From: an uncultured Myxococcales bacterium
GTDB taxonomy: Bacteria > Myxococcota > Kuafuiibacteriia > Kuafuiibacteriales > Kuafuiibacteriaceae
Length of the DNA stretch: 64,000 nt
Direction of reading: 5' to 3'
Assembly: GCA_964519665.1 (NCBI GenBank)
Contig: CAZFIV010000008.1
Coordinates: 14,913-78,912 of the forward strand
The position numbers and the translations under genes are program-made. The notes under the pieces were generated by a model. The model ran no database searches, had not been told where the DNA came from, and was given only the letters and a program-made list of their open reading frames with translations. Positions 13,992 to 32,201 of the stretch are shown here, piece after piece; within the stretch, counting starts at the first letter, position 1; the number at the start of each line of letters is the position of its first letter.

Positions 13992-15560
13992 ATGGAGGTT
14001 GAAATCCTCGTCAGCCGCGCGCACGGCGAAACACGGGTCGCTGTGCTCGAAAACGAAGTCATTCAAGAGATCCACGTCGAACGTGATCATCGCCGCGGGG
14101 TCGTCGGCAACATCTACGCCGGTCGAGTCAGTCGGGTCTTGCCCGGCATGCAGGCCGCATTCGTCGAAGTCGGGCTTGATCGGGCTGCGTTCCTATATGT
14201 CGACGACGTCGTCCTTCCTGGGGAGCTTCAGGAAGATGACAGCGACGAAGGGCCGGAGCTCGATGACGATGAAGGCGATCCCGAGGCGCTACCGACCGTC
14301 TCGGAGGCCGCACAAACACCCGCCGAAGAAGTCCCCGAACGCCCCCCCATCGAGCAGCTCCTTCGAGAAGGCCAGCCCGTGACGGTGCAGGTAGCCAAAG
14401 CCCCAATCGGGACCAAGGGCGCCCGGGTCACGACCTACATTACCCTGCCCGGCCGTTACGTGGTGTATATGCCCACCATGCGCCGGATCGGCGTCTCTCG
14501 GAAAATCACGTCCGACGTCGAACGCAAGCGGCTCAAGGACCTTCTGACCGAGATCCGCCAGCCCGGCGAAGGCGGCTTCATCGCTCGCACGGTTTGCCAA
14601 GGCCTCGATGAGACCCGCATTCGGCAAGATGTCGAGTTTCTCCGCTCATTGTGGGCCGAGGTCCTCGCGAAGACCCGCAACCAGACCGAGGCCGGTCTCG
14701 TCATGCCCGATCTCGATCTGGTCCTGCGAGCGACCCGGGACTTCTTCAACGACGACGTCGGCCGGATGCTGCTCGATGACACCCAGGAGGCCGAGCGTGT
14801 CCGCCGGCTCCTCGATTCGAGCGCCCCGCACCTCGCCGACCGAGTCGAACTCTACGAGGGCCCTTCGTTGTTCGACGAAAGAGGCGTCGAAGCCGCCCTC
14901 CGTCGCGCGCTTTCGCGGGAGATCCATTTGAAGAGCGGCGCGGCCATCGTGGTCGACGAGGCCGAAGCATTGACCGCGATCGATATCAACACGGCCAGCT
15001 TCGTCGGCTCCAGGGACCTCGAAGCCACGATCCTCAAGACGAATCTTGAATCCATCGACACCATCGTCGAGCAGATCCGGCTGCGCAACCTCGGCGGAAT
15101 CATCATCGTCGACTTCATCGACATGCAGCGTCCGGAGTCGCGGGAGCTGGTCTACAATCAGTTCCTGGAGGCCCTGGGGCGAGATCGCTCGCGGACTCAC
15201 GTGCAGCCGATGAGCGGTCTGGGCCTCGTCGAAATGACCCGCAAGCGGGTCCGACCGTCGCTGGGGCGGCTGCTGACGGAACCGTGCCCCTACTGTTCGG
15301 GGCGAGGCCGGGTGCGGTCGACACGGACGATCTGCAAGGAGATCTTCCGGGAAATCGAGCGACAAGCACTCTTGCATCCCGACGCCGGCCTGGTGGTCAC
15401 CGCCATGCCCGAGGTCGTCACGATGCTGAGCGGAGAAGAAGAGCTGCACCTGCTGGCCCTCGAAAGACGGCTCGGACGGCCGGTGGTGATCGAAGCCCGC
15501 AGCGATTTTCACCAAGAAACGTATCAGGTCGCGGCGCGACCATCGACGGCGCGACCATGA
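13992..15560 (+). CDS. rng: Ribonuclease G (RNase E/G family, short form)
   Basis: An S1 domain (VGNIYAGRVSRVLPGMQAAFVEVG) is followed by the RNase E/G catalytic core (IVVDEAEALTAIDINTASFVG; IIIVDFIDM). The length is 522 aa. Confidence 0.85.
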   Translation: MEVEILVSRAHGETRVAVLENEVIQEIHVERDHRRGVVGNIYAGRVSRVLPGMQAAFVEVGLDRAAFLYVDDVVLPGELQEDDSDEGPELDDDEGDPEALPTVSEAAQTPAEEVPERPPIEQLLREGQPVTVQVAKAPIGTKGARVTTYITLPGRYVVYMPTMRRIGVSRKITSDVERKRLKDLLTEIRQPGEGGFIARTVCQGLDETRIRQDVEFLRSLWAEVLAKTRNQTEAGLVMPDLDLVLRATRDFFNDDVGRMLLDDTQEAERVRRLLDSSAPHLADRVELYEGPSLFDERGVEAALRRALSREIHLKSGAAIVVDEAEALTAIDINTASFVGSRDLEATILKTNLESIDTIVEQIRLRNLGGIIIVDFIDMQRPESRELVYNQFLEALGRDRSRTHVQPMSGLGLVEMTRKRVRPSLGRLLTEPCPYCSGRGRVRSTRTICKEIFREIERQALLHPDAGLVVTAMPEVVTMLSGEEELHLLALERRLGRPVVIEARSDFHQETYQVAARPSTARP

Positions 15561-15809: not shown

Positions 15810-17384
15810 GTGAGCTTGGGTACCGTCACGGGGCGTGAATCGCGACCTCGGCTCGAGCGTCGGTTTTGGGTGGGGGGGCCGGCAATGGATCGACGGTGGT
15901 TACGTCGGGCTCGGGTCTTGGAACCGAGGTTCTCCAACCAAGAACGTCTGGTTCTTCGATCCCGCTCACTCGCCCCGCTGGCCGCTTTCGTTCTCGTATT
16001 GGGAGGAGGCTTCGGGGCGGTCCCGACCGGGCTCGCATCGGCCGCACCGACAACCACGACGGCCGACAGTGCGGCCCAGGTCTTCGATGACCCGTCCGCT
16101 TTCGACCGCCTGTTCGATGAGCGGGGTCAACCTTTCGACGAGGTCCGGGCGCAGTTCATCGAAGGCATCGACCTGGTCGGCAATATCAAGACCAGCCGCA
16201 CGGTCATCGAGCGACGACTCCTCGTCGCGCCGGGCGACCTTCTCGACGAGGAGAAGCTGGAAGAGTCTCGCCTCCGCCTGCTGAATACAGGCTTCTTCAA
16301 GCGGGTCGAATTCAGTCTGCGACGGGGGTCCCGGCGGGGTCAGGTGCTGTTGATCCTAGAGGTCGAGGAACGGAACACGCTCGTCATCGACCAGGTGTAT
16401 TTCGGTCATTCCCAGGTCGCGCCGTTCTTCGGCGGATTGGGGCTGGCCGATACCAATTTCCTTGGTCGCGGGGTCACGGTCGGCGGCCGTTTCGTCGTGG
16501 GCGCTGACCGACGGGGCGTTGAAGCGAGGCTCTTTGTGCCTCACCTGTCGGACACCTCGCTGCAGCTTTCGGCGTCCGCCATATTCGTGCAGGGCGCGGA
16601 GGCCGTCGATGACAGTGACCCTGAAGGCGCCCAACTTTTTTACAGTCGCTGGGGGGGCACCCTCGGCATCGGGGTGGGCGTCGCGCCCGCCCAACGGGTG
16701 TCGCTGACCTATCGACTGGAGGCGGTGCAAGCCGACCGACTCCCAAACCTCAACCCATCGATCCTCCGCCGGGCACCGTCGATCCTGTTCGATGAGTCGG
16801 TCCTGTCGACCTTGGCCTTGACGTACGAGCGAGACACCCGCGATGACCCCTTCGTTCCCCATCAGGGCCATCGGGTGGCGCTCGCGGTGGAAGTCGGCAC
16901 GACGCTGTTGGGCTCGAGCTACGAATTCAGTAAGTACACCGGCGAAGTACAGCTCGCATCTTCACCGTTCGGAGAGCACAGCGTCATCGTCCGCGGTTTC
17001 GGAGGCCTCATTCAGGGCCAGACGCCGTTCTTCAACCAGTTCTTCATCAGCGACTTCGCCTACTTCGCCTGGAATCGAGATTCCTTGCCCCGAAGCTCGC
17101 AGATCAACTTCTCCGAGTCGAACGACTACGACGACCTCGTCATCAGCGTCGGCGCCGACTACAGCATTCCGGTCGTATCGGGCGGCGACGTTCTCTACCG
17201 AATGTATGTCTACGGCGGCCTCGACCTGACGATGACCGCATCGCTCGACGAACTCCAGGAAGATCGGACGGGCCGGGGAATCGGGGGCAACTTCCCGGTT
17301 TCTTTCGATACCGGGCTCAAGTTCGATACCTCGTTCGGCTATTTTACCCTCTCGCTGTCCTACTTGCTGGACCTGGGCTATTAA
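15810..17384 (+). CDS. Omp85-family outer-membrane protein (single POTRA plus beta-barrel; BamA/TamA/TpsB-like)
   Basis: It has a signal peptide (LAPLAAFVLVLGGGFGAVPTGLASAAP) and a POTRA-like segment (IKTSRTVIERRLLVAPGDLLDEEKLEESRLRLLNTGFFKRVEF...VLLILEVEERNTLVI). The C-terminal half has alternating-hydrophobic beta-strands and ends in an aromatic residue. The start may be the internal Met at 15885. Confidence 0.7.
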   Translation: MSLGTVTGRESRPRLERRFWVGGPAMDRRWLRRARVLEPRFSNQERLVLRSRSLAPLAAFVLVLGGGFGAVPTGLASAAPTTTTADSAAQVFDDPSAFDRLFDERGQPFDEVRAQFIEGIDLVGNIKTSRTVIERRLLVAPGDLLDEEKLEESRLRLLNTGFFKRVEFSLRRGSRRGQVLLILEVEERNTLVIDQVYFGHSQVAPFFGGLGLADTNFLGRGVTVGGRFVVGADRRGVEARLFVPHLSDTSLQLSASAIFVQGAEAVDDSDPEGAQLFYSRWGGTLGIGVGVAPAQRVSLTYRLEAVQADRLPNLNPSILRRAPSILFDESVLSTLALTYERDTRDDPFVPHQGHRVALAVEVGTTLLGSSYEFSKYTGEVQLASSPFGEHSVIVRGFGGLIQGQTPFFNQFFISDFAYFAWNRDSLPRSSQINFSESNDYDDLVISVGADYSIPVVSGGDVLYRMYVYGGLDLTMTASLDELQEDRTGRGIGGNFPVSFDTGLKFDTSFGYFTLSLSYLLDLGY

Positions 17385-17386
17385 CC

Positions 17387-18031
17387 GTGAGCGCGCGGCG
17401 CGGTTTGCAGGTCAGCTTTCTGCTGGCCGGGATTTTCTCCATGGCGGCCGCGGAGGCACAGGTCGAGCCTTTGAAGGCGCGTCTTGTGTCGGATGGCACG
17501 CACTTGCGCGCCCAGTTCAGCATCACCAATGCTTTTACGGAGTCGTTTCGGAAACGGATGGCCGGCGGTCTGACGAATCGAGCCGTGCTGGCCATCGAAC
17601 TGCTCGACATGAGTTCAGATGTGTTCGTCGTTCGACAACGCAAGTGTGAGCTACGGGTAGACGTCTGGGACGATCGGGTATACGCGCGCGTCACCGATGA
17701 AGACCGGGAGCGGCGGCGGATTTACGCCCTCATCGATGATGGACTTCGGGCCTGCGGCCTGGTCGACGTCCCCCTGACGACGGTCGACAGGCTCACCGCC
17801 CCGACATACCGACTCCGCGTTCAGATCGCCCTCAACCCGATTTCACCGGAGCTTCGCGAACGAAGTCGGGAGTTCATGTCGAACCCCCAAGGCACCGCAT
17901 CCAGCCGTACCCCGGCATTCTTTGGCGCCGTCGCGCGTTTGTTCCGGTCGGAATCCGCTGCCGGTGGCACGGTGTTCGTGTTCCAATCCGGCCGATTGAA
18001 GAATCCGGTGAGCGAGGAGACGCCGCGGTGA
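17387..18031 (+). CDS. DUF4390-like periplasmic protein (often encoded immediately upstream of NtrY-type sensor kinases)
   Basis: The 214-aa product has a signal peptide (VSFLLAGIFSMAAAEA) and overlaps the downstream kinase start by 4 bp. The family assignment is from memory of the family pattern and has not been verified. Confidence 0.45.
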   Translation: MSARRGLQVSFLLAGIFSMAAAEAQVEPLKARLVSDGTHLRAQFSITNAFTESFRKRMAGGLTNRAVLAIELLDMSSDVFVVRQRKCELRVDVWDDRVYARVTDEDRERRRIYALIDDGLRACGLVDVPLTTVDRLTAPTYRLRVQIALNPISPELRERSREFMSNPQGTASSRTPAFFGAVARLFRSESAAGGTVFVFQSGRLKNPVSEETPR

Positions 18032-19566
18032 GGTGGCCGAGGTTTTCGAGGTTCGAGGGTCGAATCTTGGGCGCTATTTTCTTATGCGCCACCACCCCCT
18101 TCGTCATCTCGATCATGTTCATCCCCGGGATTATCCAGTCGCGCCTGGCTCTCGCCATGCACGATGACGTTCGCAGCCAGCTGGAGCGGTCCGCGGTCTT
18201 CTTCAAAGATTTTTTTGACGCCAAAAAGGCCGAGTACTCCGCTCGCGCCGAGACGATCTCCCGGGATCCGGTCCTCATTCGGGCGGCGCGGGCGGGTGAA
18301 GCCGACGACGTCTCGGCCCGGCTTCAGCAGTTCGTCGCCGACCACGAGGCCATTCGGGAGCTGCGAGTCTACGATCCGATCGGTGCACTGCTCGCTCGCG
18401 CCGAAGGACCACCGGAGCGCCAGGGCGATCGGTTCGTTCCCAAAACCATCGCGTTGCCGCTCGGTGTGGGCGACGCGCCCCGACTCGAAGCGGTGTTCAT
18501 CCTGTCGCGCGTCTATCTGAACGAACGCGACAAGGCGGAGTCGATCTCCCTATTGTACAGCGTGTCGCTGCGTGACGAGAGCAGTCGGGCGAATGGTTTC
18601 TATCGCGCCTACGTGGCCATCGCCCTCGTGGTGATGCTGGTGGCGGTGGCGATCGGCTACTTCCTCGCGCGAGGCGTGACCAAACGCATCGCGGAGCTCG
18701 CCCACGCCACCGAGCGGGTGGCCCAAGGCGAATACGGCTTCACGGTACCCGTGGGCGGCAATGATGAAATCACCGAGCTGACCGACGGCTTCAACCGAAT
18801 GATTCACGAGGTGGCGCAAGCCCGCGACCGGATCGTCTACCTCGAGAAGGTCTCGGGCTGGCAGGAGCTCGCCCGTCGACTCGCGCACGAAATCAAAAAC
18901 CCGCTGACCCCGATCCGGTTGGCCATCCAGGAGCTTCGACGCCGTGCGCCAGAGGGCGATGGTCGCTTCCGGCGACTGGTCGACGAGTCGACCGACATGG
19001 TCGAGGAAGAGATCGGGGCCCTGACCCGACTGGTCGACGAGTTCTCACGCTTCGCCAAGCTTCCCGAAGTCATGCCCGTCCATGTCGAAGTCCGCGAGTT
19101 CCTGGCCGACTTCCTCGGTGCGTACAACAACTTCGAGCCCGACGCGCGAGTGACCTTCGAGACCCCAAACGAACCGCTCGTCGCAGGGATCGACCGGGTC
19201 CTCATGCGACGCGTTCTGCACAATCTGGTCACCAACGCCATTCAGGCGGCGGGTCCGGGCCAAGCCGAGTTGAGCATCCGGTGCTTCGGCGCCGAAAAGG
19301 AGCGCATCGAGCTTCGGGTGGAAGACAACGGACCGGGTGTGCCCGACGACCAGGCGCACAAGGTTTTCGAACCTTATTTCACGACCAAGGCCACCGGCAC
19401 CGGCCTCGGCCTGGCGATCGTCAAGAAGATCGTTCTGCAGCATCGCGGCACCATTGTCCTCACCCGCTCCGAGGCGGGCGGAGCGGCCTTCGTCATCACC
19501 CTTCCCGCGGCGCCCGCGGGCGTCACCCCCGAGCGCGGCGATGCGCCGCCTTCCCGGCCGATCTAG
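18028..19566 (+). CDS. Sensor histidine kinase, NtrY/AtoS-like (2 TM, HAMP, HisKA, HATPase)
   Basis: Present are TM1, a periplasmic domain, TM2 (AIALVVMLVAVAIGYFLA), a HAMP domain, an H-box LAHEIKNPLTPIRLAIQEL, and N/G boxes (HNLVTNAIQA; GTGLGLAIVKKIVLQHRGTI). No response regulator is adjacent. Confidence 0.85.
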   Translation: MRWPRFSRFEGRILGAIFLCATTPFVISIMFIPGIIQSRLALAMHDDVRSQLERSAVFFKDFFDAKKAEYSARAETISRDPVLIRAARAGEADDVSARLQQFVADHEAIRELRVYDPIGALLARAEGPPERQGDRFVPKTIALPLGVGDAPRLEAVFILSRVYLNERDKAESISLLYSVSLRDESSRANGFYRAYVAIALVVMLVAVAIGYFLARGVTKRIAELAHATERVAQGEYGFTVPVGGNDEITELTDGFNRMIHEVAQARDRIVYLEKVSGWQELARRLAHEIKNPLTPIRLAIQELRRRAPEGDGRFRRLVDESTDMVEEEIGALTRLVDEFSRFAKLPEVMPVHVEVREFLADFLGAYNNFEPDARVTFETPNEPLVAGIDRVLMRRVLHNLVTNAIQAAGPGQAELSIRCFGAEKERIELRVEDNGPGVPDDQAHKVFEPYFTTKATGTGLGLAIVKKIVLQHRGTIVLTRSEAGGAAFVITLPAAPAGVTPERGDAPPSRPI

Positions 19567-19572
19567 ATCGCC

Positions 19573-20550
19573 TTGCCGCAACGGCGACGGCCGCATAGGG
19601 TCGGCGTGGTGCGCATCCCCACCGGTCTACTGCTATGCGTCATCGCGGCCTGTGCCGCGGGGGACCAACGGGGGCCCGAGCGTCCGAATGCAGGGACCGC
19701 TGATCGACGCCCTTCCGGTCCTCCGAGCGGTAGTCATGGCCCCGCCGGGCATCTCGAGCTCAAAGCCGCGGCGGCCGCCGCGGGGGCCGGCAATCTACCG
19801 TTGGCTTATCAACACTGTCTGGACGCCATCCGGAAGAATCCCCAGCTGGAACATGCGTACCGGCTAGCGGCCAGCATCTGCGCCATGCAGGGCAATGCGG
19901 AATGCGAACGGCAGAACTACGATGATGGTCTGACGGCGCTTCCCCGATCACCGGCCCTGCTGCGAGACCGCGCCTTGTTACATCTCGAGCAAGGCCAGTA
20001 CGCGGCCGCGGTCAACCGATATGAACGAGCCCTGGCCATCACCGGCGAGACCTCCCCCGAGGCGATGGCCGATCTCGCGTACGCCTACGTCTATGTCGAT
20101 CGACTCGACGAAGCCGATCGACTCGCCCGGCGGGCGGTCGAAATCGACGACGCGTGTTTCTCATGCCAAATGGCCCTCGGGCAGGTGTGCTTATCCAGCA
20201 ACGACTTCCCCGACGCGGTCACCGCGTTTAGCCAGGCCCGAAACCTGTCGCCTCGCGACCCGGACGCGCGCCGGTCCGAAGCCAAAGCACGCTTCTTGGC
20301 CGGTGAGGTGCGGACCGCACACCAGCTGTATGAGGCGCTGGTCGTCGAATATCCGGACGACGCGCGGCTGCGAGTTCAGGCCGCCCAGGTCGCAATGGGC
20401 GCCAAAGCATACGATGCCGCGGTGACCCACCTTGAGGTGGTCGCGGCCGCCAACCCCGATCAAGAACAACTGCTGCGCCTGTTGGCCAAGGCCCGAACGA
20501 AGGCAAAGAACGCGCGCAGGGCGACGTCCAGGTCGCGCACAAGCGAGTGA
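19573..20550 (+). CDS. TPR-repeat lipoprotein
   Basis: It has a signal peptide with a lipobox-like segment (LLLCVIAACAAG). Multiple 34-aa TPR-like repeats are present (AYRLAASICAMQGN..., ALLHLEQGQYAAAVNRYERAL...). The start is 7 bp after the kinase stop. Confidence 0.75.
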   Translation: MPQRRRPHRVGVVRIPTGLLLCVIAACAAGDQRGPERPNAGTADRRPSGPPSGSHGPAGHLELKAAAAAAGAGNLPLAYQHCLDAIRKNPQLEHAYRLAASICAMQGNAECERQNYDDGLTALPRSPALLRDRALLHLEQGQYAAAVNRYERALAITGETSPEAMADLAYAYVYVDRLDEADRLARRAVEIDDACFSCQMALGQVCLSSNDFPDAVTAFSQARNLSPRDPDARRSEAKARFLAGEVRTAHQLYEALVVEYPDDARLRVQAAQVAMGAKAYDAAVTHLEVVAAANPDQEQLLRLLAKARTKAKNARRATSRSRTSE

Positions 20551-20638
20551 GGTCAAGTGAACGACAAGCCGAACCCCAGCCAGATCAAGGTCAACATCGA
20601 TCTCGATTCAGTGTCCTTGAAGAAGTTCCGAGGCCTTG

Positions 20639-22903
20639 CTAAGGCCGCGCGCCGACCGGCGTCGCTTTGAGCGCGGCCTTGCCGTCCTTCTTGTAGACCT
20701 GAAAACGTACCGTTCGACAATTGTACTTCTTCATGAGGCTGTCGCGGTTCTTGACCAGCTTCGCGAGGAAGCGCTCGAAGGCGAGATCGTTCGTCGGCTC
20801 CCCACAGCGGCGCCGGAGATCGATGAAGCGTTCATACACTTCCTTGAAGTGCTCGTGGTCCTCGGGATCGAGGGTGGCGGACGGCGGCGCGGCCGCCCGA
20901 GACGTCGGGTCCCTTGCCGCCGACTGCGCCAGCAGGTCGGCCGGAACGGTCGCCACGACCGTAGCGTCGGGCTTGTCGTCCTGAGAGAAGGTATGGCGAC
21001 CGGTCAGGTCTTCGCGGGCCGATTGCGCGAGCAGCTCCGATGCGACCGGGGCGACGACGGTCTCCTCCGGTCCGAAGGCGGCCCGCTCCTCCTCGTTCAC
21101 ATGAGGCAAGGCCGCCGGTTGGCGGAGGTCGAGGCTGCCCCCCCCTCGAACACCGGGCCTGGGAGCGACGGGCCCGGAAGGAGGAATGCTGACTTCCTCG
21201 ACCGGTCCGGCCGCCTCGAGACTGCCGGCCATGGGTCGCCCTCGGATGTCCGCGGCTGATCTTCGGCTGCCTGCCGAGGCATCCGCCGGTCCGCCTTCGA
21301 GTTGCGCGATCGCCTCGGCGATCGCTTCTTCCGCCCCTGGCGTCGAGGGTACACCGAGCGCGGCCATATCCGACGGGTGGGTATCAGCGGGAGGGGCGAG
21401 CGCTTCCGTCTGCTCGCTGAGTTCGAACTGCGATCGTGCGGGCGTCGTATTGACCACCGGAGTGGGCACCGACGGAGGAACCGGCGACGGCGGTAAGCTC
21501 TCGAAAGACAGGCTGTCGAGACCATCGGCGCCGAGCACTAGGTCGGGGCCCTTGTCGTCGCCGGCCGACGGCGGGGGTGGGGGCGGCGCGGCCAGAGGCG
21601 GCGCCGGCGGAGGCGACGCAGGCGGAGGAGAAATCGGTTGAGGAGGCGAACGCAGCGACGAGATCCCGGACGGCCCGCCCGGCGCCCCCGGCGGATTGGT
21701 TCCGAGAGGACCTAGATCGCCCAACGAGAGCTCCTCTTCGGGCCCGACCATCCCCGGCGGCCGGGTCGACATGCTCCCGATGTCCGCCGTGGGAACGAGG
21801 GCGCGGTTCGGGATCTTCAGCACGGTCATGTTGACCAGCTTCACGATGCGGCGAAAGGGACGGCTCACCTCGTTCTCGGGCATCTGGAGGTCGCCCTTGC
21901 CCATATTGAGGTCAGACAAGTGCTCGGCGATCTTGTGAATCGGCACCACGAAACCTCGGAAGTTCAGAATCCCCACCAACAGCGCGACCAGAAACGCCGC
22001 CACCATCGCCCCCAACACGCCGCTCTGACGCTCGGCGATCTCGTCGAGCCCGGCCGTCGCATCGACCGAAACCACCCAGCTGAATTGGGGCGGCGCGCCC
22101 TCCACATGGGTCGAATAGGACACCAGCGCATGCCCGGTGGCTCGATGGTCGACGAAAAGCGGCAGTAGCGGAATGGTGTCGTCGGTGAGAGGTTCTTCGC
22201 TCTGCCCCGAGAAGTTGACGACCTCTTTCTTGGACGCCTCGACGACGGTCTTTGCGAGGGCGTCGGGCGCCGAACTCACGAGGACGCGCTTGTCGGAGGA
22301 TAGCGTCACGTGGCCTCCGAGGCTCCCGCCCCAGGCGGTCACGGCCTCTTTGTCGATCGGCCGCCCGAGCACGATCGCGCCGAGGATGTCGCCGTCGTCA
22401 TCGACCAGGGGTGCTCCCACGGCCACGACGAACTCGGGACGGGCGCTCCACAGTCCGTCCAGAGCGTAACCGAGCTGCGTTGAAACGAAGATCGGGTGGC
22501 CGTCGATCGACGGAGGGTTCTCGTCGATGTTCGATCGACCGGCCGACAAGAGAACGCGGCCCCGCCGATCGACCAGCCAGGCGAACCCGCGTTTTGGCTT
22601 CGCGGCTTCGAGCAACTTCAGGAGCCCCGTCAGGGCTCGTTCGCCCCGGGAGCCGGAGCGGCCGAGGTCGGCGACCTTGTTGCCGATGACCGCTTCGTGC
22701 GCGGTCGCCATCACTTCCGTGAGCGAGTCGTAGGCGTCTTTCTCGACCATCCGGAGCAGACGGGGCACCGCCTGCTGCACGTAATCTCGACTTCTCTTTT
22801 GCGCCTGCTCGACCACCGAGGTCGTGTCGATGTACAGCGCAACCCCGAACGGTGTGAGGACCGTCAGGACCAACAAGGCCGCGTGTCGAGTCCAAAAGCT
22901 CAT
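20639..22903 (-). CDS. Membrane receptor: TM, dCache-like periplasmic domain, TM, HAMP-like segment, a roughly 250-aa Pro-rich linker and an unrecognised C-terminal domain
   Basis: TM1 (HAALLVLTVLTPFGVALYI) is followed by a roughly 250-aa periplasmic Cache-like region, then TM2 (VLGAMVAAFLVALLVGIL) and a HAMP-like helix (IHKIAEHLSDLNMGKGDL). A PPPASPPPAPPLAAPPPPPP-rich low-complexity stretch follows, and the protein ends in a compact domain ...HEHFKEVYERFIDLRRRCGEPTNDLAFERFLAKLVKNRDSLMKKYNCRTVRFQVYKKDGKAALKATPV. Confidence 0.7.
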   Translation of the reverse strand: MSFWTRHAALLVLTVLTPFGVALYIDTTSVVEQAQKRSRDYVQQAVPRLLRMVEKDAYDSLTEVMATAHEAVIGNKVADLGRSGSRGERALTGLLKLLEAAKPKRGFAWLVDRRGRVLLSAGRSNIDENPPSIDGHPIFVSTQLGYALDGLWSARPEFVVAVGAPLVDDDGDILGAIVLGRPIDKEAVTAWGGSLGGHVTLSSDKRVLVSSAPDALAKTVVEASKKEVVNFSGQSEEPLTDDTIPLLPLFVDHRATGHALVSYSTHVEGAPPQFSWVVSVDATAGLDEIAERQSGVLGAMVAAFLVALLVGILNFRGFVVPIHKIAEHLSDLNMGKGDLQMPENEVSRPFRRIVKLVNMTVLKIPNRALVPTADIGSMSTRPPGMVGPEEELSLGDLGPLGTNPPGAPGGPSGISSLRSPPQPISPPPASPPPAPPLAAPPPPPPSAGDDKGPDLVLGADGLDSLSFESLPPSPVPPSVPTPVVNTTPARSQFELSEQTEALAPPADTHPSDMAALGVPSTPGAEEAIAEAIAQLEGGPADASAGSRRSAADIRGRPMAGSLEAAGPVEEVSIPPSGPVAPRPGVRGGGSLDLRQPAALPHVNEEERAAFGPEETVVAPVASELLAQSAREDLTGRHTFSQDDKPDATVVATVPADLLAQSAARDPTSRAAAPPSATLDPEDHEHFKEVYERFIDLRRRCGEPTNDLAFERFLAKLVKNRDSLMKKYNCRTVRFQVYKKDGKAALKATPVGARP

Positions 22904-22909
22904 TGGTCG

Positions 22910-23647
22910 TTACTCACCCTGGGGGATAACGGTCACCCCCACATCCAGTTGACCGAGGTTGAGGTCGTTATTGGCGACCGTCACCTTTTGCCGCAAAACG
23001 ATGCCGTCGCGTCCGATGACGCGAAGCTCGTAGTCACCCTGCGGAGCATCGAACGTGAAGCGCCCCCTGTCATCGGGAACGGCGGCCACCCCCACCTCTC
23101 CGACGTAGACCAGCGCCTGCATATGCGGCCATTGCTCGACCCGAATGACTCTCAGCGGCTGACCGGGGCTGCACACGTAGGTCTTCTGAGCGCCCGGCTC
23201 GACCGTGGCGAACGCTTCGCCATCGACCGTCACCGTGACCGCGTCGCGATCGGCATTCACGAAGCTGACCTGGGCGTCCGATGCACACGATGCGATGTTG
23301 GGGGAGAACTTCAGCCCCTCGATGGTGATCGACTGGTGCGCGGTCGGAGCCGGAATCGGAAGCGAGTTGCCGTCTTCAACGGCCAGGAACAGGGCGACAG
23401 CCGGCTTGCTGAGGGTCGCCGATGGAGGTAGCGTGACGATCCGCTTGCGAGCGAAGCCGATCCGGTTACCGACCCGCGAGGTTTCGGCGACGGATATCGT
23501 TCCCTTGACCCGAGCCGCCCAAGCCACTCCCATGGCGGCGGTCATCAGCACCGTTGCCAACACGAGCCCGCCGGCACAAACACCGCCCCAGCGAGAATTG
23601 CGGCGGGAAACGAAACGACCCAAAAGGCGAAAAAGCGTACGCATCAC
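22910..23647 (-). CDS. Hypothetical membrane-anchored or secreted beta-rich protein (Ig/CarboxypepD_reg-like?)
   Basis: It has an N-terminal TM/signal segment (GGVCAGGLVLATVLMTAAMGVAWA) and a beta-strand-rich C-terminus (GDYELRVIGRDGIVLRQKVTV). It sits 6 bp upstream of, and in the same orientation as, the receptor gene. Confidence 0.55.
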   Translation of the reverse strand: MMRTLFRLLGRFVSRRNSRWGGVCAGGLVLATVLMTAAMGVAWAARVKGTISVAETSRVGNRIGFARKRIVTLPPSATLSKPAVALFLAVEDGNSLPIPAPTAHQSITIEGLKFSPNIASCASDAQVSFVNADRDAVTVTVDGEAFATVEPGAQKTYVCSPGQPLRVIRVEQWPHMQALVYVGEVGVAAVPDDRGRFTFDAPQGDYELRVIGRDGIVLRQKVTVANNDLNLGQLDVGVTVIPQGE

Positions 23648-23681
23648 AAGGCCTTCGGCTTGATCGCAGGTTGATAATCAC

Positions 23682-25115
23682 GTGTCAAACAACCGTCCCG
23701 CAGCCCATGCATTTCCGACGCAAATCGCGCTACTCAGTGCGATTTGGCTGGTGGGTCTTCTCTGGTGCCTGAGCCTCGATGATCCTCGCCTGCGCTACGG
23801 ATCATTTCTGGGCGGCATGGCCGTCGCCAATCTGGGTTGGCTCGGCTTGATTCGCGCCGTCAATCATCCCCGCATCCTGGGCGCCTCCGACGATATCCGG
23901 GCCGCACGTACGACGCGGATCTTCGGGGCCCTGATCGTGCTCGGGCTCGGGGCAAGGTTCGCTGCCTGGTGGTTACCACCCGCATTCTCGGAAGACGTCT
24001 TTCGCTACGTGTACGAAGGACGCGTCGTTTGGTTCTATGGCTGGGCATTTCCATTCACGCACCCGCCTGCCGATGCGCCCTCGTTGGGGGTCGCGCCCGA
24101 GCTGCTCGACCACGCGTGGCTGCGCATCAACCATCCCGAGCTGTCCACGATCTATCCCCCACTGGCCCAGATCACATTCGCGGTCGCCGGTGGATTGGGC
24201 GAGCTCGCGGGAGGTGGGCATCTCGGCTTCCTCAAAGCACTGTTGGTGGGCGCGGATCTGCTGACTTGGCTCCTGGTCACGCTCAGTCTGCGGGCCGTGG
24301 GCCGGTCGGCGCTCGAATCCGTGGGGTGGGGTCTCAATCCGCTGGTCGTCCTCGAAGTGGCACGCGAGGGCCACGCCGATAGCCTGAGCGCACTCGGACT
24401 CGGGCTTGGCCTGTACGGGTTCGTAGTGGCCCGGCCCCGTCTCGGCTACCTCGGCTTCGCCGCCGCAGCGATCGCCAAGCTCAACGGCCTCATCGTGTTG
24501 CCGGCGGCGGCGCGCACGACGCGGCGAGGATTGGGCCTCGCGATCGCGGTGTGCACCCTGGTGACCCTTCCCTATCTGTTCGCTGGCGGCACCGCCGGCG
24601 ATGGATTGAGCGCGTACGCCTCGAAGTGGCGAGCCGGTGATGGTGCATTCTCGGTCCTGCTATCCGGAGCCGAGCTCATCCTCGGCGGCGATTGGGCCCG
24701 TTTGCCGGGCTGGAGCTCGACGGGCGAAATAACATTGACTCGACATCAGCTCGCCCGTTGGATGGTCGCGGGGCTGTTCGGAGGTTGGGCGCTGCTGGTC
24801 ATCGTTCGGCCCGCGCCGATGAGCGCGGTCCCCGGACGAGCGGGGATGCTTCTTCTCGGCGTGCTGCTCCTGTCGCCGACCCTTCATCCTTGGTACGTTC
24901 TGTGGCTCCTGCCGTTCGTGGCCGCCGCCCCCAACTTCGAAGGCCGACGAGCGGCGGTGGCGCTCGCGGTACTCGCCCCCGCCCTTCATCATCCCGGGTG
25001 GATCGAGCTGACCACCGGGCAATGGAGCGACCTCGGATGGGTTCGAGGCCTGGTCCACCTACCGGTCTGGGTGATGCTGAGCGCTGACCTGGCGATACCC
25101 CGCCGAACCCGGTAG
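23682..25115 (+). CDS. Polytopic integral membrane protein, GT-C-like glycosyltransferase fold (DUF2029/PMT_2-like) candidate
   Basis: At least 9 predicted TM helices are present. A conserved extracytoplasmic loop (FRYVYEGRVVWFYGWAFPFTHPP) resembles the lipid-linked sugar transferases of the GT-C superfamily. This is an inference. Confidence 0.55.
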   Translation: MSNNRPAAHAFPTQIALLSAIWLVGLLWCLSLDDPRLRYGSFLGGMAVANLGWLGLIRAVNHPRILGASDDIRAARTTRIFGALIVLGLGARFAAWWLPPAFSEDVFRYVYEGRVVWFYGWAFPFTHPPADAPSLGVAPELLDHAWLRINHPELSTIYPPLAQITFAVAGGLGELAGGGHLGFLKALLVGADLLTWLLVTLSLRAVGRSALESVGWGLNPLVVLEVAREGHADSLSALGLGLGLYGFVVARPRLGYLGFAAAAIAKLNGLIVLPAAARTTRRGLGLAIAVCTLVTLPYLFAGGTAGDGLSAYASKWRAGDGAFSVLLSGAELILGGDWARLPGWSSTGEITLTRHQLARWMVAGLFGGWALLVIVRPAPMSAVPGRAGMLLLGVLLLSPTLHPWYVLWLLPFVAAAPNFEGRRAAVALAVLAPALHHPGWIELTTGQWSDLGWVRGLVHLPVWVMLSADLAIPRRTR

Positions 25116-25129
25116 CCTGGTCACCGACC

Positions 25130-25951
25130 ATGCCTCTGCAAGACGGTCTGCTCATCGCCGTGAAGGACGGCGTCGTCGAGCTCACGGCAAACCTCGTCGA
25201 ACCCCACGGGGACGACCCGGCCAGCTTCACGGAGGCGCTTCAGCAACGCCTCGCAGAACACCAACACCAAGCGATGACCGATGACACGATCATGGGCGAC
25301 GAACTCGCACTGGCGAGCTGCATCGTGTGTCGGGACCCCATCCCCGATGCGTTGAAAGATCCGCTGCTCGGTCTCGGGTTTGCACCGGAAGATACCCCCC
25401 CAGGGGGACAACAACCGCGCTCGCTCTTCGGTCGGCTCGGCAGCAGCAAGCAACGGTCCCGCCTCGAGAAGTGGACGCTCCGATATCATCGAAGCGATGA
25501 ACTCGATCCGAGACTAGCCGCCTTCGAAGCCGCGTTGGTCGACGAAGTGCCGGCGGGCGCGCTTCCCGAGGTCGCTCTCGAAGGCGCGCACCGAGTCATC
25601 GACGGGGCGCGAACCTACCTGCAACTGCTGCTCGCTCCCGGGCTCGCCGGTCTCGAGGCCCTGGAACGTCAGCTCGATCAACTTCGGCGAGCCAAGAGCG
25701 GACGGTGGATTCTTCATGCGCGGGCCGTGCGGGGACTCGCCGGATTCACCGTTCAAAGCATCGCCGCCGAAGCGCCCGACACCCAATGGGGCCCCGACGA
25801 AGATGACAGTCCGCTGTGGGTTCGAGCGCCCCACGGGATCACGGTCGCGACCGACCCCGAGTATCGAACCGTCGAATTCATTCGCCGAGGCCTGCGAGCG
25901 TCCCTCTCCGACTACGTTCGCGACGTCCTTCGACAGTCGAAGAATCATTGA
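25130..25951 (+). CDS. Hypothetical protein
   Basis: The 273-aa ORF has no recognisable motifs. GC3 is consistent with coding, and it is immediately followed by the next plus-strand gene. Confidence 0.5.
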   Translation: MPLQDGLLIAVKDGVVELTANLVEPHGDDPASFTEALQQRLAEHQHQAMTDDTIMGDELALASCIVCRDPIPDALKDPLLGLGFAPEDTPPGGQQPRSLFGRLGSSKQRSRLEKWTLRYHRSDELDPRLAAFEAALVDEVPAGALPEVALEGAHRVIDGARTYLQLLLAPGLAGLEALERQLDQLRRAKSGRWILHARAVRGLAGFTVQSIAAEAPDTQWGPDEDDSPLWVRAPHGITVATDPEYRTVEFIRRGLRASLSDYVRDVLRQSKNH

Positions 25952-25970
25952 CCGAGGCCCTTCGAACGGC

Positions 25971-27293
25971 ATGCTATGGTCGACAGGGATGACCGCACTC
26001 CGTTCTGCCTTTGCTTCGGCCATCGGCGTGGCTCTGCTCACCTCGGCCACCGCAGCGTCGGCTGCACCCGACCCGGTGCCCGACGAGCAGCGCGGGTCGA
26101 CGGCGACCGAACCCGTTGCGGTGTTGGTGCTTCCGTACCAACCCATTCTGCGGTCGGTGCCTCAGGCGAAGGTGAAGCAAGCGACCGAGTACTTGCTCAA
26201 GGAGCTGAAAGCGACCGAAGGGCTCAGGGTGCTTCAAGGCGGCGTCGCCACGAGCCAGGGCGCCCCCGCCTCGCTCGAAGCGGCGGTAAAGCATAAGAAC
26301 CAGGCGCTCGAGGCGGAAACCGCCAAGAAGATCAAGCAGGCGATCCACCACCACCGAGAGGCGATCGCCGCTTTCGAAAAGAACGCGTCGGCGCTGCAGG
26401 ACGCCAGCGTCTATATCCGTACCCATCACGAGCTGGCGCGGGCCCTGATGTGGTCCGGCGCCGACGACGATGCGAAGGCGACGATCGACGTCGCGGCTCG
26501 ACTCGATCCGAGTTTCGAGCTCAAGCCGGACCAGTACTCCCGCCTGTACCGCGCTTGGTTTTTCGCAGCGGCCCAAAAGGTCGTTCGGGAGCGACCGGGC
26601 GCACTGATGGTGAAGAGCGCGCTGCCGGGAGCAACGGTCCAACTCGATGGCCGGCCGATGGATGTCGCGCCCGTCCTCATCGACCGAGTGGTTCCCGGTA
26701 AGCACCTCGTCACCGCCTCCGTCGATGGAGTGCCTCCCTTTGGCATCGTCGTTACGGTCGAGAGCCGGAAGCGATCCGAACTCGGGCTCGACTTCGCCGG
26801 GGTATTGGGGGGGCTAGAAGTGGGCGACGTGACCGATGCGGTCGCTCGCAACGAGCTGCCTCGGGAAGCCGTGGCCCAGGCGGCACAGGCCGGAGAAAAC
26901 GCCAGGGCCGAGTACGTCGTCGCGGGTGGTCTTGCCAATGACCGAGTGGGCAACGACCTCAACGTGCACACGTTTGTTGTCCGGGTCGCCGACAGGCGGG
27001 TCATGAGCCTGAACCCGGTCGATTTCGACAGCGAGCTCCTGACCGCCGAGTCGGACGTGATCCGGGTCGTCCGCCAGGTCGCAGCGGCGATCGAGGAGTT
27101 CAGCGACGCCTCGACGAGCATCGCGGTGATCGAAAAGCGAACCAGCGGATTTGCCCGCACCACGCTCAATCAGGTCAACGGCGCACCCGAACCACCCTCT
27201 CGTCGAGCCGCGGCTCGTCGTTCGACCGGCCCCCGTAAGGTCTTCAAAGCGCTCGAAGGCGGGACGATCCGCATTCAAGACGAAGAAGAGTGA
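25971..27293 (+). CDS. Secreted hypothetical protein with a PEGA-like beta-domain
   Basis: The ATG at 25971 gives a clean signal peptide (MTALRSAFASAIGVALLTSATAASAAP). The segment GATVQLDGRPMDVAPVLIDRVVPGKHLVTASVDG looks like a PEGA/Ig-like beta domain. Confidence 0.55.
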   Translation: MLWSTGMTALRSAFASAIGVALLTSATAASAAPDPVPDEQRGSTATEPVAVLVLPYQPILRSVPQAKVKQATEYLLKELKATEGLRVLQGGVATSQGAPASLEAAVKHKNQALEAETAKKIKQAIHHHREAIAAFEKNASALQDASVYIRTHHELARALMWSGADDDAKATIDVAARLDPSFELKPDQYSRLYRAWFFAAAQKVVRERPGALMVKSALPGATVQLDGRPMDVAPVLIDRVVPGKHLVTASVDGVPPFGIVVTVESRKRSELGLDFAGVLGGLEVGDVTDAVARNELPREAVAQAAQAGENARAEYVVAGGLANDRVGNDLNVHTFVVRVADRRVMSLNPVDFDSELLTAESDVIRVVRQVAAAIEEFSDASTSIAVIEKRTSGFARTTLNQVNGAPEPPSRRAAARRSTGPRKVFKALEGGTIRIQDEEE

Positions 27294-27298
27294 CGTGG

Positions 27299-29479
27299 CT
27301 ACTTCTTGAAAGCGCCGCCCACGGCGCCGTTGCCCCGGCTGCCTGGCGAACTCGACCGCTGTTGATTGGCCAGGAGCCGTAACCCCCGCGCCGCCTCAAC
27401 GTTGTTGGGTTCCCACTCCAGGCACCGCTGCCACCACTTTTGCGCCTCGACCGGATTGCTGCGAGCATACGAAATATTGCCGAGGTACTGGTACGCCACC
27501 GGCAGGTTCTCTTGCTCCTGCACGGCCTTTTTCAGCAGCTGTACGGCCTTCGAAAGGTTCACCGGAGAGTTCGGGTCGAGGCTGAAGGTGACCCAGCCCA
27601 GGGTGGCGAAGTAGATAGGGTCTGGGTTGAGACGTACGGCTTCGGCCAAGACTTGCTGCGCGTTCGGAAAGTCTTTGCGCCGGATCATGTTCATCGCCTG
27701 GTCAAAGAGCTGCTCGCCTCGCAGGATTTCATTCACATCGGTCGGCAAGCCTTTGGCTTTACGGTCGAGGTAAATGATGTACTCGGGTCGCTTGGTCGGA
27801 TCGGTGATCGTTTCGTAGGCTTCGGTGATGCGCGCGAAGATCTCATTGAGCTTTTGCTGCGCCGGGCCGAGGTCGACATCGGAAAACCCGTCTATGTGCC
27901 ACTTTTTGGCGAGCTCGAAGTAGGCAGCCTTAATGTCGGCCTCGGGCGTGCGGCGGGTCGCCCGAAAGATTTGAAAGAAGTCCTGCGACATAATTTCCGC
28001 GTGAAACCGGTTGACCCGCGCCTGGGCCCGCTGATCGGCACCGAGCGCTCCCCGAGCGGTGCCATCGTCAGGACCGTCGTCGAGCTCGAGCACCAGACTG
28101 CCGTTATCGCGGTCGAGGTTCTCGATTTCGGCCGCCGCCACGTTGACCGCGACCTCCATCGCGTTGTCGTCGTTGACTTCGGGCAGAACGGTCATGCCGC
28201 TGGTGACCAGCCCGAATAGTTGCGGCACGATCGTGGCCGCTTCGGAAGCACGAACCCGGGAGAGCTGCCGATACGTCTTGCTCCCGTCGATGTGACCAGC
28301 GACGGTCACCCCACCGAACACCCGCTGAAAGTACGGCAACAACCGCTCGAACTCGGTCGTCGGCACCAGCGGCACATCTTCGCGTCCGACGAAGAACTTC
28401 AGGATCTGAGGCGGATGCACGTGCTGCTTGATGCCTTCGAAGAGGACCTGGACAGGTTCGAAGCGACCTTCCGGCACTCGACCCACGAAGGCATCGGTTT
28501 CGCGCCAGCGATAATTCCCGAACGCCATCCCCAGAGCGAGCGGCAGGAGCTGCCCCGCCAGCAACTTGTAGGCCGTCGCAAGGTCGGCCTCGGTCACGAG
28601 CCGCAGCTCGAGCAGACTCTGCTGCAAGGTTCGGGCGCGGTCTTTCATGAACCGGAGGCACCGTTCGAAATCGGGCTCGGTAATGCGACCGCGGTGCAAG
28701 AGCAACGCGCCGACGTTTTCGCTCTCGGCGTTCGACTGCATGAAAGTCGGGTTGCCGTCGATGATGTAGATGCGGCGGTGGGTTCCCGCATCGTTGTTCA
28801 TGTCGAGCATGCCCGTTCCCCGGTCGTATCGAACCGTCGACAGCAGGAGGGCGACCGGCAACTCCTCGAGGGACCCGGCCTCCGCGAGTCTCGGAAAGGG
28901 CCGCCCATGAAAGACCCCATCGACGATCTCGCCCGCCTGGTCGGCCACCGAGGCGCCCGAAACGCCGGACAAGGCCGAGGTCACGGAGTACCCCCGCCCG
29001 GACACCGGGCGAGCCGCGTGGGCGGTCGCCAGTTCGGCCGGGTCGGCGTTGTGCAGCCGTAAAGAGGCGTGGCGCGCCGGCGGTTCCGACTCGAAGGCGC
29101 TCGTGGGTACGTCGAGCAACGCGTCCGCAATGATCTCCTCGAGTCTGCGCAGGTCGAGCGGCTTCGAGAGGAAATCCACGACCTGATACTTGTCGCGAGC
29201 TTCAACGGCGGTCTTCGGATTCTTGAATACCCCGCTCATCATCACGATCGCCGTGTGGGGCGCATCGCTCGAACGGATCGCCTCCGCCACCGCGAAGCCG
29301 TTTTTCTTCGGCAGCAGAAAATCGATGAGCGCGAGGTCGGGTCGAGACCGCTGGAAGGCCTCGATGCCATCCTCGCCATCCACCGCGACGGTCACCCGAT
29401 ATCCGCGGCCCTCCAGGTACTCGTGCAGCAAGTCCCGGATGGCCTCCTCGTCGTCTACGACCAGCACCCGATGCGGCAT
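27299..29479 (-). CDS. Response-regulator receiver fused to a DUF4388-like domain, a degenerate J-domain and C-terminal TPR repeats
   Basis: The receiver MPHRVLVVDDEEAIRDLL...DLALIDFLLPKKNG...LSKPLD has its Asp and Lys residues in place. A DUF4388-like block follows (LEELPVALLLSTVRYDRGTGMLDM...NVGALLLHRGRITEPDFERCL). The J-domain-like segment DFFQIFRATRRTPEADIKAAYFELAKKWHIDGF has HPD replaced by HID. TPR repeats follow at the C-terminus. I take the ATG at 29479 as the start. Confidence 0.8.
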   Translation of the reverse strand: MPHRVLVVDDEEAIRDLLHEYLEGRGYRVTVAVDGEDGIEAFQRSRPDLALIDFLLPKKNGFAVAEAIRSSDAPHTAIVMMSGVFKNPKTAVEARDKYQVVDFLSKPLDLRRLEEIIADALLDVPTSAFESEPPARHASLRLHNADPAELATAHAARPVSGRGYSVTSALSGVSGASVADQAGEIVDGVFHGRPFPRLAEAGSLEELPVALLLSTVRYDRGTGMLDMNNDAGTHRRIYIIDGNPTFMQSNAESENVGALLLHRGRITEPDFERCLRFMKDRARTLQQSLLELRLVTEADLATAYKLLAGQLLPLALGMAFGNYRWRETDAFVGRVPEGRFEPVQVLFEGIKQHVHPPQILKFFVGREDVPLVPTTEFERLLPYFQRVFGGVTVAGHIDGSKTYRQLSRVRASEAATIVPQLFGLVTSGMTVLPEVNDDNAMEVAVNVAAAEIENLDRDNGSLVLELDDGPDDGTARGALGADQRAQARVNRFHAEIMSQDFFQIFRATRRTPEADIKAAYFELAKKWHIDGFSDVDLGPAQQKLNEIFARITEAYETITDPTKRPEYIIYLDRKAKGLPTDVNEILRGEQLFDQAMNMIRRKDFPNAQQVLAEAVRLNPDPIYFATLGWVTFSLDPNSPVNLSKAVQLLKKAVQEQENLPVAYQYLGNISYARSNPVEAQKWWQRCLEWEPNNVEAARGLRLLANQQRSSSPGSRGNGAVGGAFKK

Positions 29480-29545
29480 CGCGTTTTGTCGGCCCCAGGA
29501 GGGCCCACCCTTCTCCCGTGATGGCCCTACCACGCGCCCCGACGG

Positions 29546-31951: not shown

Positions 31952-32201
31952 CTGGCCCGGAAGGTACGGGGGTGTGCTCTTTGGAGCAACTACAGACCCT
32001 GGACGCCGATACAAAGAAGGCGTGAGACCCCCGCCCCATCCGGCCACCGCGGCCACTGCGAGTGCCAACCCGCAGCGAGCGGAGCGAGCGAAGACGGCCG
32101 GTGAGGTCGACCTTCAGGCTTCGCAGTGCACCCGTCGAGGGCCCGAGGCGTCGGAGCGCGGGCGGCGATTCGCGTACGTCGAAGCCCAGCGGGCCGAAGA
32201 A

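Follow-up and report, generated by a model that had tools for sequence, protein, structure and literature searches.

We describe here a receptor gene on the minus strand (20639-22903) of a 64,000-nucleotide stretch of DNA, referred to in its full length as the window, from an uncultured Myxococcales bacterium (contig CAZFIV010000008.1). It is a real open reading frame (ORF) of 754 amino acids (aa) with an ATG start. Its GC content by codon position (0.71/0.51/0.80, the DNA having 65% GC) follows the pattern of a coding frame, while the long ORFs lying over it on the opposite strand are the usual shadows of high-GC DNA. The encoded protein belongs to the MXAN_5187 family, which is specific to Myxococcota, and within it to a branch outside Myxococcia that bears the HAMP-like module. 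A preliminary description of the locus had proposed a Cache/HAMP-type receptor lacking a methyl-accepting chemotaxis protein (MCP), GGDEF or kinase output, and Pfam and NCBIfam searches bear this out, since no MCP, GGDEF/EAL, HisKA/HATPase or other catalytic output domain was found in them. The feature as then described is real and correctly delimited, and its domains had been well read. The parts of the receptor gene are the following.

20639..22903, minus strand: whole receptor gene, with the order transmembrane (TM) segment, double Cache (dCache) domain, TM segment, HAMP-like module, disordered linker, C-terminal domain; from the ORF, a third-position GC of 0.80 and the NF041620/NF041621 scores
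22823..22882, minus strand: first TM segment (TM1) or signal anchor, residues ~8-27; Kyte-Doolittle peak, within model helix 3-68
22019..22822, minus strand: predicted periplasmic divergent dCache sensor domain, residues ~28-295; AlphaFold2 model and Foldseek
21950..22018, minus strand: second TM segment (TM2), residues ~296-318; strongest hydrophobic segment, within model helix 283-315
21812..21949, minus strand: putative divergent HAMP-like module, residues ~319-364, VVPIHKIAEHLSDLNMGKGDL...PFRRIVKLVNMTVLKI; two predicted helices and hhalign
20867..21811, minus strand: acidic Pro/Ala/Ser-rich disordered linker, residues 365-679, with a poly-Pro core at ~401-460; composition and model confidence
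21005..21070, minus strand: linker motif copy 1, PEETVVAPVASELLAQSAREDL, residues 612-633; motif scan, copy found only in the clade of the window
20906..20971, minus strand: linker motif copy 2, PDATVVATVPADLLAQSAARDP, residues 645-666, family-wide; 72-sequence alignment and motif scan
20654..20866, minus strand: MXAN_5187 C-terminal domain (C-domain), residues 680-750, helix-helix-beta-hairpin, basic (pI 9.75)

The receptor has two TM segments and an N-in/C-in topology; the position of TM1 is kept in about 70 members of the family and TM2 is conserved across it. Comparison of the whole protein with PDB sequences gave no match and neither did a PHROGs search. No RNA family was found by Rfam over the whole window, and a promoter and terminator scan of 19400-24200 returned nothing beyond shuffled expectation.

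Sensor domain and HAMP-like module

The periplasmic region is, on the predicted structure, a divergent double-Cache fold. In an AlphaFold2 model of the receptor built from a 72-sequence alignment, residues 1-320 reach a predicted local distance difference test (pLDDT) of 85-95 and form a long stalk helix (3-68), two PAS-like alpha/beta modules and a return helix (283-315). Foldseek against the PDB returned only periplasmic double-Cache sensors for this part (LuxQ, Tlp3, PctA, PctD, McpU, TlpQ, KinD, DctB and Mlp24), with E about 1e-7 to 1e-6, a probability of 1.0 and a template modelling score of about 0.5 on target length, and the dCache assignment of the preliminary description therefore holds at the level of the predicted fold. 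It does not hold at the level of Pfam, where dCache_1 (PF02743) reaches 21.8 bits with the whole protein and 25.8 with the periplasmic region alone, short of the gathering score of 45; the periplasmic regions of relatives likewise give sub-threshold Pfam matches to CHASE4, sCache_3_2 and dCache_3, all of the Cache clan. LuxQ, which shares the periplasmic double-PAS/Cache fold, is the top Foldseek match. However, sensors of this kind (LuxQ, Tlp3, PctA, KinD, DctB) are only 6-17% identical in sequence to the receptor domain and, unlike in LuxQ-type dCache sensors, the cytoplasmic part of the receptor is neither a kinase nor an MCP.

Straight after TM2 follows a segment which, by profile comparison, is a putative divergent HAMP-like module. 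It is modelled as two helices (322-333 and 348-362), and its pattern R-x-FV-x-PI-x2-IAEHLSE-x-Q-x-GRGDLE-x-PE-x2-VS-x-PFRRLVRLINMTVQK ranks, within the clade of the window, with the most strongly conserved stretches of the protein. A 41-sequence profile, made up of this clade and the equivalent segments of Kofleriaceae-type and other non-Myxococcia members, was aligned by hhalign to the HAMP domain of CrdS-type sensor kinases with a probability of 80% and E 1.4e-5 over 55 columns in register, compared to a maximum probability of 1.7% among 30 column-shuffled control profiles. An earlier alignment with the clade of the window alone (Neff 2) had given 13% and is superseded by the broader one. 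The HAMP reading of the preliminary description is thus supported by the profile-profile match and the two modelled helices, but the module goes undetected by Pfam HAMP (PF00672), which gave no match at E<=10 on the isolated segment and none in 9 relatives. It resembles HAMP in its place directly after TM2, in having two short helices, the first with a Pro close to its start, in the G-x-GDL connector and in the N-M signature of helix 2. It differs in that the Pfam hidden Markov model (HMM) detects it in no member of the receptor family, and in that it leads to a disordered linker and not to a coiled-coil output.

C-terminal domain and linker motif

The compact domain at the C-terminus had been considered unassigned and possibly novel. 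This claim fails, because NCBI already catalogues both the domain and the family, albeit as uncharacterised. Residues 682-750 align to model positions 2-70 of 70 of NCBIfam NF041621, "MXAN_5187 C-terminal domain", with 92.6 bits (cut-off 30, E 1.5e-26), which places the receptor among its members, and homologues of 50-68% identity are named "MXAN_5187 C-terminal domain-containing protein" by NCBI. Against NF041620, "MXAN_5187 family protein", residues 10-750 align to model positions 6-600 of 601 with 147.5 bits and E 1.2e-42; since this score lies under the cut-off of 200, the receptor is a homologue and not an equivalog by the NCBI rule. It shares with NF041620 the TM1, a periplasmic domain of ~260 aa, the TM2, the Pro-rich linker and the C-domain at the extreme C-terminus. 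The branch of the window differs by the HAMP-like insert, a duplicated linker motif, a longer linker (754 aa in total vs ~600) and an operonic beta-sandwich partner, and the Myxococcia members behind NF041620 appear to be without all four.

The C-domain is the best-conserved part of a protein which as a whole is only ~25% identical to family members. Invariant across the family are H685, F693, C700, E702, F712, K715, L716, N719, C729, V732, F734, K739, G741, A743-A747 and P749, and so is the stretch CRTVRFxVYxKDGKAALKATPV. Modelled alone, the domain reaches a pLDDT of 86, with helices at 2-22 and 31-49 and a beta-hairpin at 53-61/64-72 (domain numbering); in the full-length model the pLDDT is 89-95. 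The end of the protein is thus a compact conserved domain, as had been suspected, and not a disordered tail. The alternation of the two modelled strands exposes R733, Q735, Y737, K739, K742, K746 and T748, and this predicted hairpin face suggests a binding surface that would fit an acidic protein or a polyanion. The domain carries 18 Lys and Arg in 75 aa.

To the extent that the predicted fold can be compared, the C-domain is without a relative among solved structures: its profile gave only low-complexity noise against PDB sequences, and Foldseek of the model against the PDB found no fold match (best E 0.94). Pfam on 71 C-domain sequences at E<=1 returned nothing consistent, and no Pfam family is assigned; in the same set neither PilZ (PF07238) nor a zinc-ribbon was matched. 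The predicted fold is two helices and one hairpin, and only two Cys are present (C700 and C729), 29 residues apart and with no CxxC. Poor conservation among orthologues and identity with a PilZ or zinc-ribbon family, either of which had been set as a ground for giving up the domain, are therefore both contradicted by the near-invariance of the orthologues and the lack of HMM matches. A Cys2His metal site within the monomer was considered and appears unlikely, as the predicted topology separates H685 and C729 from C700, placing them at opposite ends of the helical hairpin.

The preceding linker comprises 315 aa, not the ~250 aa of poly-Pro previously proposed; it is indeed long and Pro-rich (P 18.4%, A 14.9%, S 10.2%, G 9%), while true poly-Pro covers only ~60 aa (401-460), with 21 Pro within residues 401-450. 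It is acidic (net charge about -22, pI 4.3) and mainly modelled as disordered, with pLDDT mostly <50. Length and sequence vary among homologues except for short motifs. In the 72-sequence alignment T648, P654 and L657 are nearly invariant, and they belong to the motif P-[DE]-x-T-[RV]-V-A-x-[IV]-P-x-E-L-L-x2-S-A-R (in short TxVAxxPxELLxxSAR, hereafter the ELL motif). By a regular-expression scan it is present in 145 of the 183 full-length family proteins, ~45 aa before the C-domain, and a short helix is predicted within copy 2 of the window's receptor (655-662). Two copies occur in 15 of the 183, the second being confined to the clade of the window. This conserved linker motif, duplicated in the window's receptor, is new here.

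Overall, the cytoplasmic part resembles in its build the tethers of ZipA, TonB, TolA and RodZ, in that an anchor in the membrane is joined by a long, flexible, Pro-rich spacer to a small globular domain at the end, which in the receptor would likewise dock a partner. This is a comparison of how such proteins work only, as there is no sequence or fold relation between them and the receptor, and, unlike in those systems, the tether of the receptor is cytoplasmic and attached to a periplasmic sensor.

Distribution, operonic partner and neighbourhood

When 1.84 billion cluster representatives were searched with a profile, the C-domain was found in 2747 proteins at E<=1e-3. Among the matches listed it sits at the extreme C-terminus in 150 of 150, and the full-length proteins have 500-700 aa. 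In a scan of one genome per GTDB species 441 loci with the C-domain were found, and the locus comparisons given here rest on the best 80 of these, each from a different assembly. All 80 are from Myxococcota, with Myxococcus, Cystobacter, Archangium, Vitiosangium, Anaeromyxobacter, Kofleriaceae and Haliangiales among them, and the receptor occurs once in each of these loci. About 70 complete ORFs in these loci show the layout TM, ~260 aa, TM, Pro-rich region, C-domain.

It had been asked whether the C-domain recurs as a stand-alone or fused module. It does not: the architecture is the same in every complete ORF examined, and the short matches are fragments. Stand-alone C-domain proteins were considered and rejected as pieces of frameshifted genes, three of them (P0041, P0068 and P0280) having been examined on long contigs. 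Each directly follows a 363-527-aa ORF of the same gene in frameshift-prone long-read assemblies; P0041 and P0068 overlap the preceding ORF, while P0280 (locus L084) is separated from it by a gap. Because the domain is always C-terminal and the stand-alone forms are fragments, we regard it as the signature of one orthologous family and not as a mobile output module. Some fragments bear an older source name, "cell division protein FtsK, partial", which was likewise put aside as a probable artefact of the Pro-rich linker. As a separate observation, frameshifts in the long-read metagenome assemblies of ENA behind loci L081-L085 split genes more generally, for instance into Transgly and Transpeptidase halves of one penicillin-binding protein (PBP), and they create false 75-88-aa "stand-alone" C-domain proteins which populate public protein clusters.

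The family falls into two kinds of members. The HAMP-like segment is carried outside Myxococcia, by the clade of the window, by Kofleriaceae/Haliangiales-type loci (L020, L050, L067, L068) and by L032 and L036. In Myxococcia members it is absent, and TM2 runs directly into a Pro-rich region with PDDFxF and DPFA repeats. Such repeats were seen in L069 (8219-10216), with at least 4 'DPFA(M)' repeats, and in L021, L025, L049 and L070.

The split is almost fully shared by the gene lying directly upstream of the receptor:

22910..23647, minus strand: co-transcribed gene for a 245-aa exported protein of two beta-sandwiches; 6-bp gap, jackhmmer homologues, PF13620

The junction reads ...GGGTGAG TAA CGACCA ATG.... 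The 245-aa protein starts with a hydrophobic signal sequence and comprises two beta-sandwiches, one cupredoxin-like but lacking the copper ligands, the other CarboxypepD_reg-like; PF13620 matches 7 of 16 members, and weak matches to cupredoxin/plastocyanin entries of the PDB were found. It had been described as beta-rich, which stands, and as membrane-anchored, which does not, since the signal sequence and the two beta-sandwiches make secretion into the periplasm the probable fate of the product. Cleavage is possibly at AWAA|R, a site that is our own reading and not a signal-peptide prediction. By jackhmmer a homologue lies directly upstream of the receptor in 18 of the 80 loci, that is in 18 of the 20 HAMP-bearing ones, with gaps of -3 to +13 bp in 17 of them and of 54 bp in L067; in the Myxococcia loci among the 80 none was found. 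Outside the 80, the gene is also upstream of the receptor in L081 and L084. The proposal of a two-component surface sensor pair thus keeps its operonic partner, with short gaps in 17 loci, but only as a lineage-restricted arrangement. It is new here that the HAMP-like module and the 245-aa gene occur together in non-Myxococcia and are both absent in Myxococcia. This joint pattern is suggestive only, because it probably goes back to one ancestral event.

Downstream of the receptor, and convergent with it, lie two further genes:

18028..19566, plus strand: convergent CrdS-like sensor kinase (TM, periplasmic region, TM, HAMP, HisKA, HATPase); Pfam
19573..20550, plus strand: TPR protein between kinase and receptor, with a hydrophobic segment at residues 9-30; Pfam TPR families

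The TPR protein is conserved in the clade of the window and syntenic in 11 loci. The kinase is two genes from the receptor in the window; a homologue lies downstream of and convergent to the receptor in 57 of the 80 loci and immediately adjoins it in L012, L013, L017, L027, L039, L044, L051 and L062. In Myxococcia, the kinase operon next to the receptor is the published crdS operon. CrdS (Mxan_5184) is a TM-TM-HAMP-DHp-CA kinase for the NtrC-like CrdA, and its operon also encodes a PBP, an FG-GAP protein and an SBP_bac5 protein; a response to envelope stress has been proposed for it (Willett and Kirby, PMC3147164). By gene order MXAN_5187 is three genes from crdS. Kinases in the crdS context of Myxococcia have the kinase at 18028-19566 as their best match in the window, with 172-205 bits vs 50-79 for two hybrid kinases; the putative orthology of the window's kinase with CrdS rests on this best match within the window and on position.

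The surroundings differ between lineages. In the clade of the window a syntenic block runs through SppA, a REC-DUF4388-DnaJ-TPR protein, a PEGA-like protein, a 273-aa protein, a 477-aa multi-TM protein, the 245-aa protein, the receptor, the TPR protein, the HAMP kinase, a 214-aa protein, Omp85 and RNase G. In Myxococcia an AmiA-like amidase homologue (upstream of the receptor in 38 loci), a small DUF2007 gene and often an HPF/RaiA-like gene precede the receptor, while the kinase, the SBP_bac5 protein, the FG-GAP protein and a class A PBP follow on the opposite strand. Loci of the L081-L085 clade have a class A PBP as the direct convergent neighbour of the receptor. The 64-kb window itself contains neither a PBP nor an amidase homologue, and it has none of the crdS-operon genes for the PBP, FG-GAP and SBP_bac5 proteins. 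Three deep lineages accordingly show the receptor in association with a CrdS-like kinase and/or a class A PBP, in convergent and not operonic form.

Several features of the neighbourhood were noted in passing. In ~33 Myxococcia loci (e.g. L019, 10248-14081) a protein of 1240-1330 aa with AAA_16/STAND, TPR, sigma-54 activator and HTH_8 parts lies between receptor and crdS; it is without a receiver domain and is followed by a conserved 120-aa ORF, the pair being tandemly duplicated in L026. In the window, the 477-aa protein (23682-25115, plus strand) has at least 6 strongly hydrophobic segments and no Pfam or NCBIfam family; its gene diverges from the 245-aa gene at a distance of 34 bp, and its position is conserved in ~15 related loci. 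The ORFs at 25130-25951 and 25716-27293 (both plus strand), with homologues in ~12 loci, overlap by ~235 bp on the same strand, so that at least one start codon within 25130-27293 is mis-set in the mechanical ORF list; the second of them has a weak PEGA-domain match. The REC-DUF4388-DnaJ-TPR response regulator (27299-29533, minus strand) adjoins a long SppA peptidase of 840 aa (29546-32068, minus strand). On the other side, tandem hybrid histidine kinases (HisKA-HATPase-REC; 9855-11750 and 11793-13862, plus strand) lie upstream of RNase G (13992-15560), and an Omp85/POTRA gene (15810-17384, plus strand) is followed by that of the family-less 214-aa protein (17387-18031, plus strand), whose end and the start of the CrdS-like kinase have 4 bp in common. 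Omp85, the 214-aa protein and the kinase are syntenic in ~9 loci, which suggests an operon of an outer-membrane protein and a kinase.

Possible mechanism and alternatives

We tentatively favour, with somewhat less than even confidence, a model in which the receptor is a non-enzymatic, envelope-linked receptor or scaffold that recruits a conserved cytoplasmic partner. In this model the Cache domain would read a cue of the cell envelope, probably via the co-encoded periplasmic protein, much as LuxQ reads LuxP. In both cases a periplasmic protein is encoded beside the receptor; however, LuxP is a periplasmic binding protein, whereas the adjoining protein here is a two-beta-sandwich protein and its interaction with the receptor putative. 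The signal would then pass through TM2 and the HAMP-like module, and the output would be non-catalytic, consisting of the recruitment or release of a highly conserved cytoplasmic partner, either a protein or a polyanion. This partner may be bound by the terminal basic domain, for which an output or docking role had already been suggested, together with the upstream ELL motif, both held on a long flexible leash of the ZipA/TonB type, in which a TM segment and a Pro-rich tether carry a small terminal partner-docking domain. The model gains from the envelope context of the receptor in three lineages, namely Myxococcia, the L081-L085 clade and the clade of the window, where this context consists of the CrdS-like kinase, the TPR protein, Omp85 and SppA.

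Several points weigh against it. Mechanical relay of a conformational change in the HAMP is not possible through a disordered linker, and the coupling of HAMP-like module and tail is therefore conjecture. Since Myxococcia members keep the tail and the C-domain without the HAMP-like module or the periplasmic partner, the core function may need no transmembrane signalling and may be scaffolding instead. The conserved neighbours, being convergent, are not co-transcribed with the receptor, and Kofleriaceae-type loci have neither a CrdS-like kinase nor a PBP within 10 kb. Locus counts are inflated by shared ancestry, so that the 57 loci with a kinase stand for a few deep clades and not for 57 independent events. 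The folds of the dCache domain and of the C-domain are AlphaFold predictions. In the literature search no partner, ligand or phenotype was found for MXAN_5187 and no paper mentioning it; searches with neighbouring locus tags gave the CrdS paper and an unrelated transcriptome table only.

As a first alternative, the receptor might be a membrane-tethered nucleic-acid binder, in which the basic C-domain would bind DNA (or RNA) and act as a tether between nucleoid and envelope or as a membrane-bound regulator, possibly released by proteolysis. Its basic character (pI 9.75, 18 Lys and Arg in 75 aa), the conserved residues (Arg, Lys, Tyr and Gln) that line one hairpin face and helix 2 (KLxKN), a phylum-wide near-invariance typical of domains that bind universal macromolecules, and the presence of the SppA peptidase within the conserved synteny block of the window's clade are all consistent with such a role, for which there is a precedent in M. 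xanthus, where FrzCD sits on the nucleoid via a basic tail. However, no helix-turn-helix, ribbon-helix-helix or zinc motif was found by Pfam in the 71 C-domain sequences, and the adjoining linker is so strongly acidic (net -22) that it would oppose the binding of a polyanion. On balance we consider this alternative rather unlikely.

The conserved neighbourhood allows a different view, in which the receptor is an accessory co-sensor of the CrdS-like kinase, acting via TM/HAMP contacts in the manner of YycH/YycI-WalK or LuxP-LuxQ, with the tail serving for localisation. The kinase, downstream in 57 of 80 loci, is always convergent and in several adjacent, the pairing occurs in both Myxococcia and the distant clade of the window, and the HAMP-like segment of the receptor aligns best to the HAMP of CrdS-type kinases; CrdS has moreover been proposed as an envelope-stress responder (PMC3147164). 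Convergence, on the other hand, excludes co-transcription, the HAMP-like module is lost in Myxococcia members, and Kofleriaceae and L081-type loci have the receptor without a kinase nearby. Kinases are in addition very abundant in Myxococcota, and the window's kinase is tied to CrdS solely by its best in-window match and its position. We therefore regard a co-sensor as quite improbable.

Similarly low in our estimation is a non-signalling morphogenetic scaffold, which would join peptidoglycan synthesis on the periplasmic side, with its class A PBP and amidase-like protein, to a cytoskeletal or division protein in the cytoplasm, comparable to ZipA, RodZ or FtsN. The class A PBP that is convergent or near in Myxococcia and L081-L085, the AmiA-like gene upstream in 38 loci and the persistence of the family in Myxococcia without the HAMP-like module argue for it, as does the succession of TM segment, Pro-rich tether and small terminal domain, which resembles ZipA- and TonB-type tethers. 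It is at odds with the absence of a PBP or amidase homologue within the 64-kb window, with the lack of similarity to ZipA, SPOR or RodZ domains, and with the Cache fold, which is normally a ligand sensor. Finally, that the tail is a disordered, poorly conserved extension, or its terminal segment a PilZ or zinc-ribbon module, is to be dismissed almost with certainty, since the disordered and variable linker and the two conserved Cys that could be cited for it are set against a folded and best-conserved stretch of 70 residues with no PilZ or zinc-ribbon match among 71 members at E<=1 and no CxxC.

Going beyond the recruitment model favoured here, it is conceivable, though we rate it as doubtful, that the C-domain is a new fold defining a phylum-specific, non-enzymatic output. 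Acting jointly with the ELL motif, and carried by an acidic leash without fixed structure, it would let an envelope or peptidoglycan cue, sensed by the Cache domain and its beta-sandwich partner, control the membrane recruitment of a universally conserved cytoplasmic component (perhaps the nucleoid, the transcription/translation machinery or the cytoskeleton), alongside the CrdS-CrdA and PBP1a module that times Myxococcus development.

To an already catalogued family we herein add support for the dCache fold and, by profile, for the HAMP-like module, a C-domain without solved relatives, the linker motif, the lineage split and the link to CrdS and PBP1a. This singles out three features: the C-domain, the ELL motif and, only outside Myxococcia, the HAMP-like module together with the periplasmic partner. 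To our knowledge, almost every Cache/HAMP receptor characterised so far has a kinase, MCP or cyclase at its end. In the MXAN_5187 family this place is taken by a disordered tail and a tiny near-invariant domain. The family is conserved across Myxococcia and Polyangia-type lineages, the two major myxobacterial branches, and adjoins the CrdS kinase and PBP1a region, which is implicated in the envelope-stress input to M. xanthus development. MXAN_5187 resides in a genetically tractable organism. Identification of the partner of the C-domain would give this orphan family a function and could reveal a recruitment-type route of signalling.

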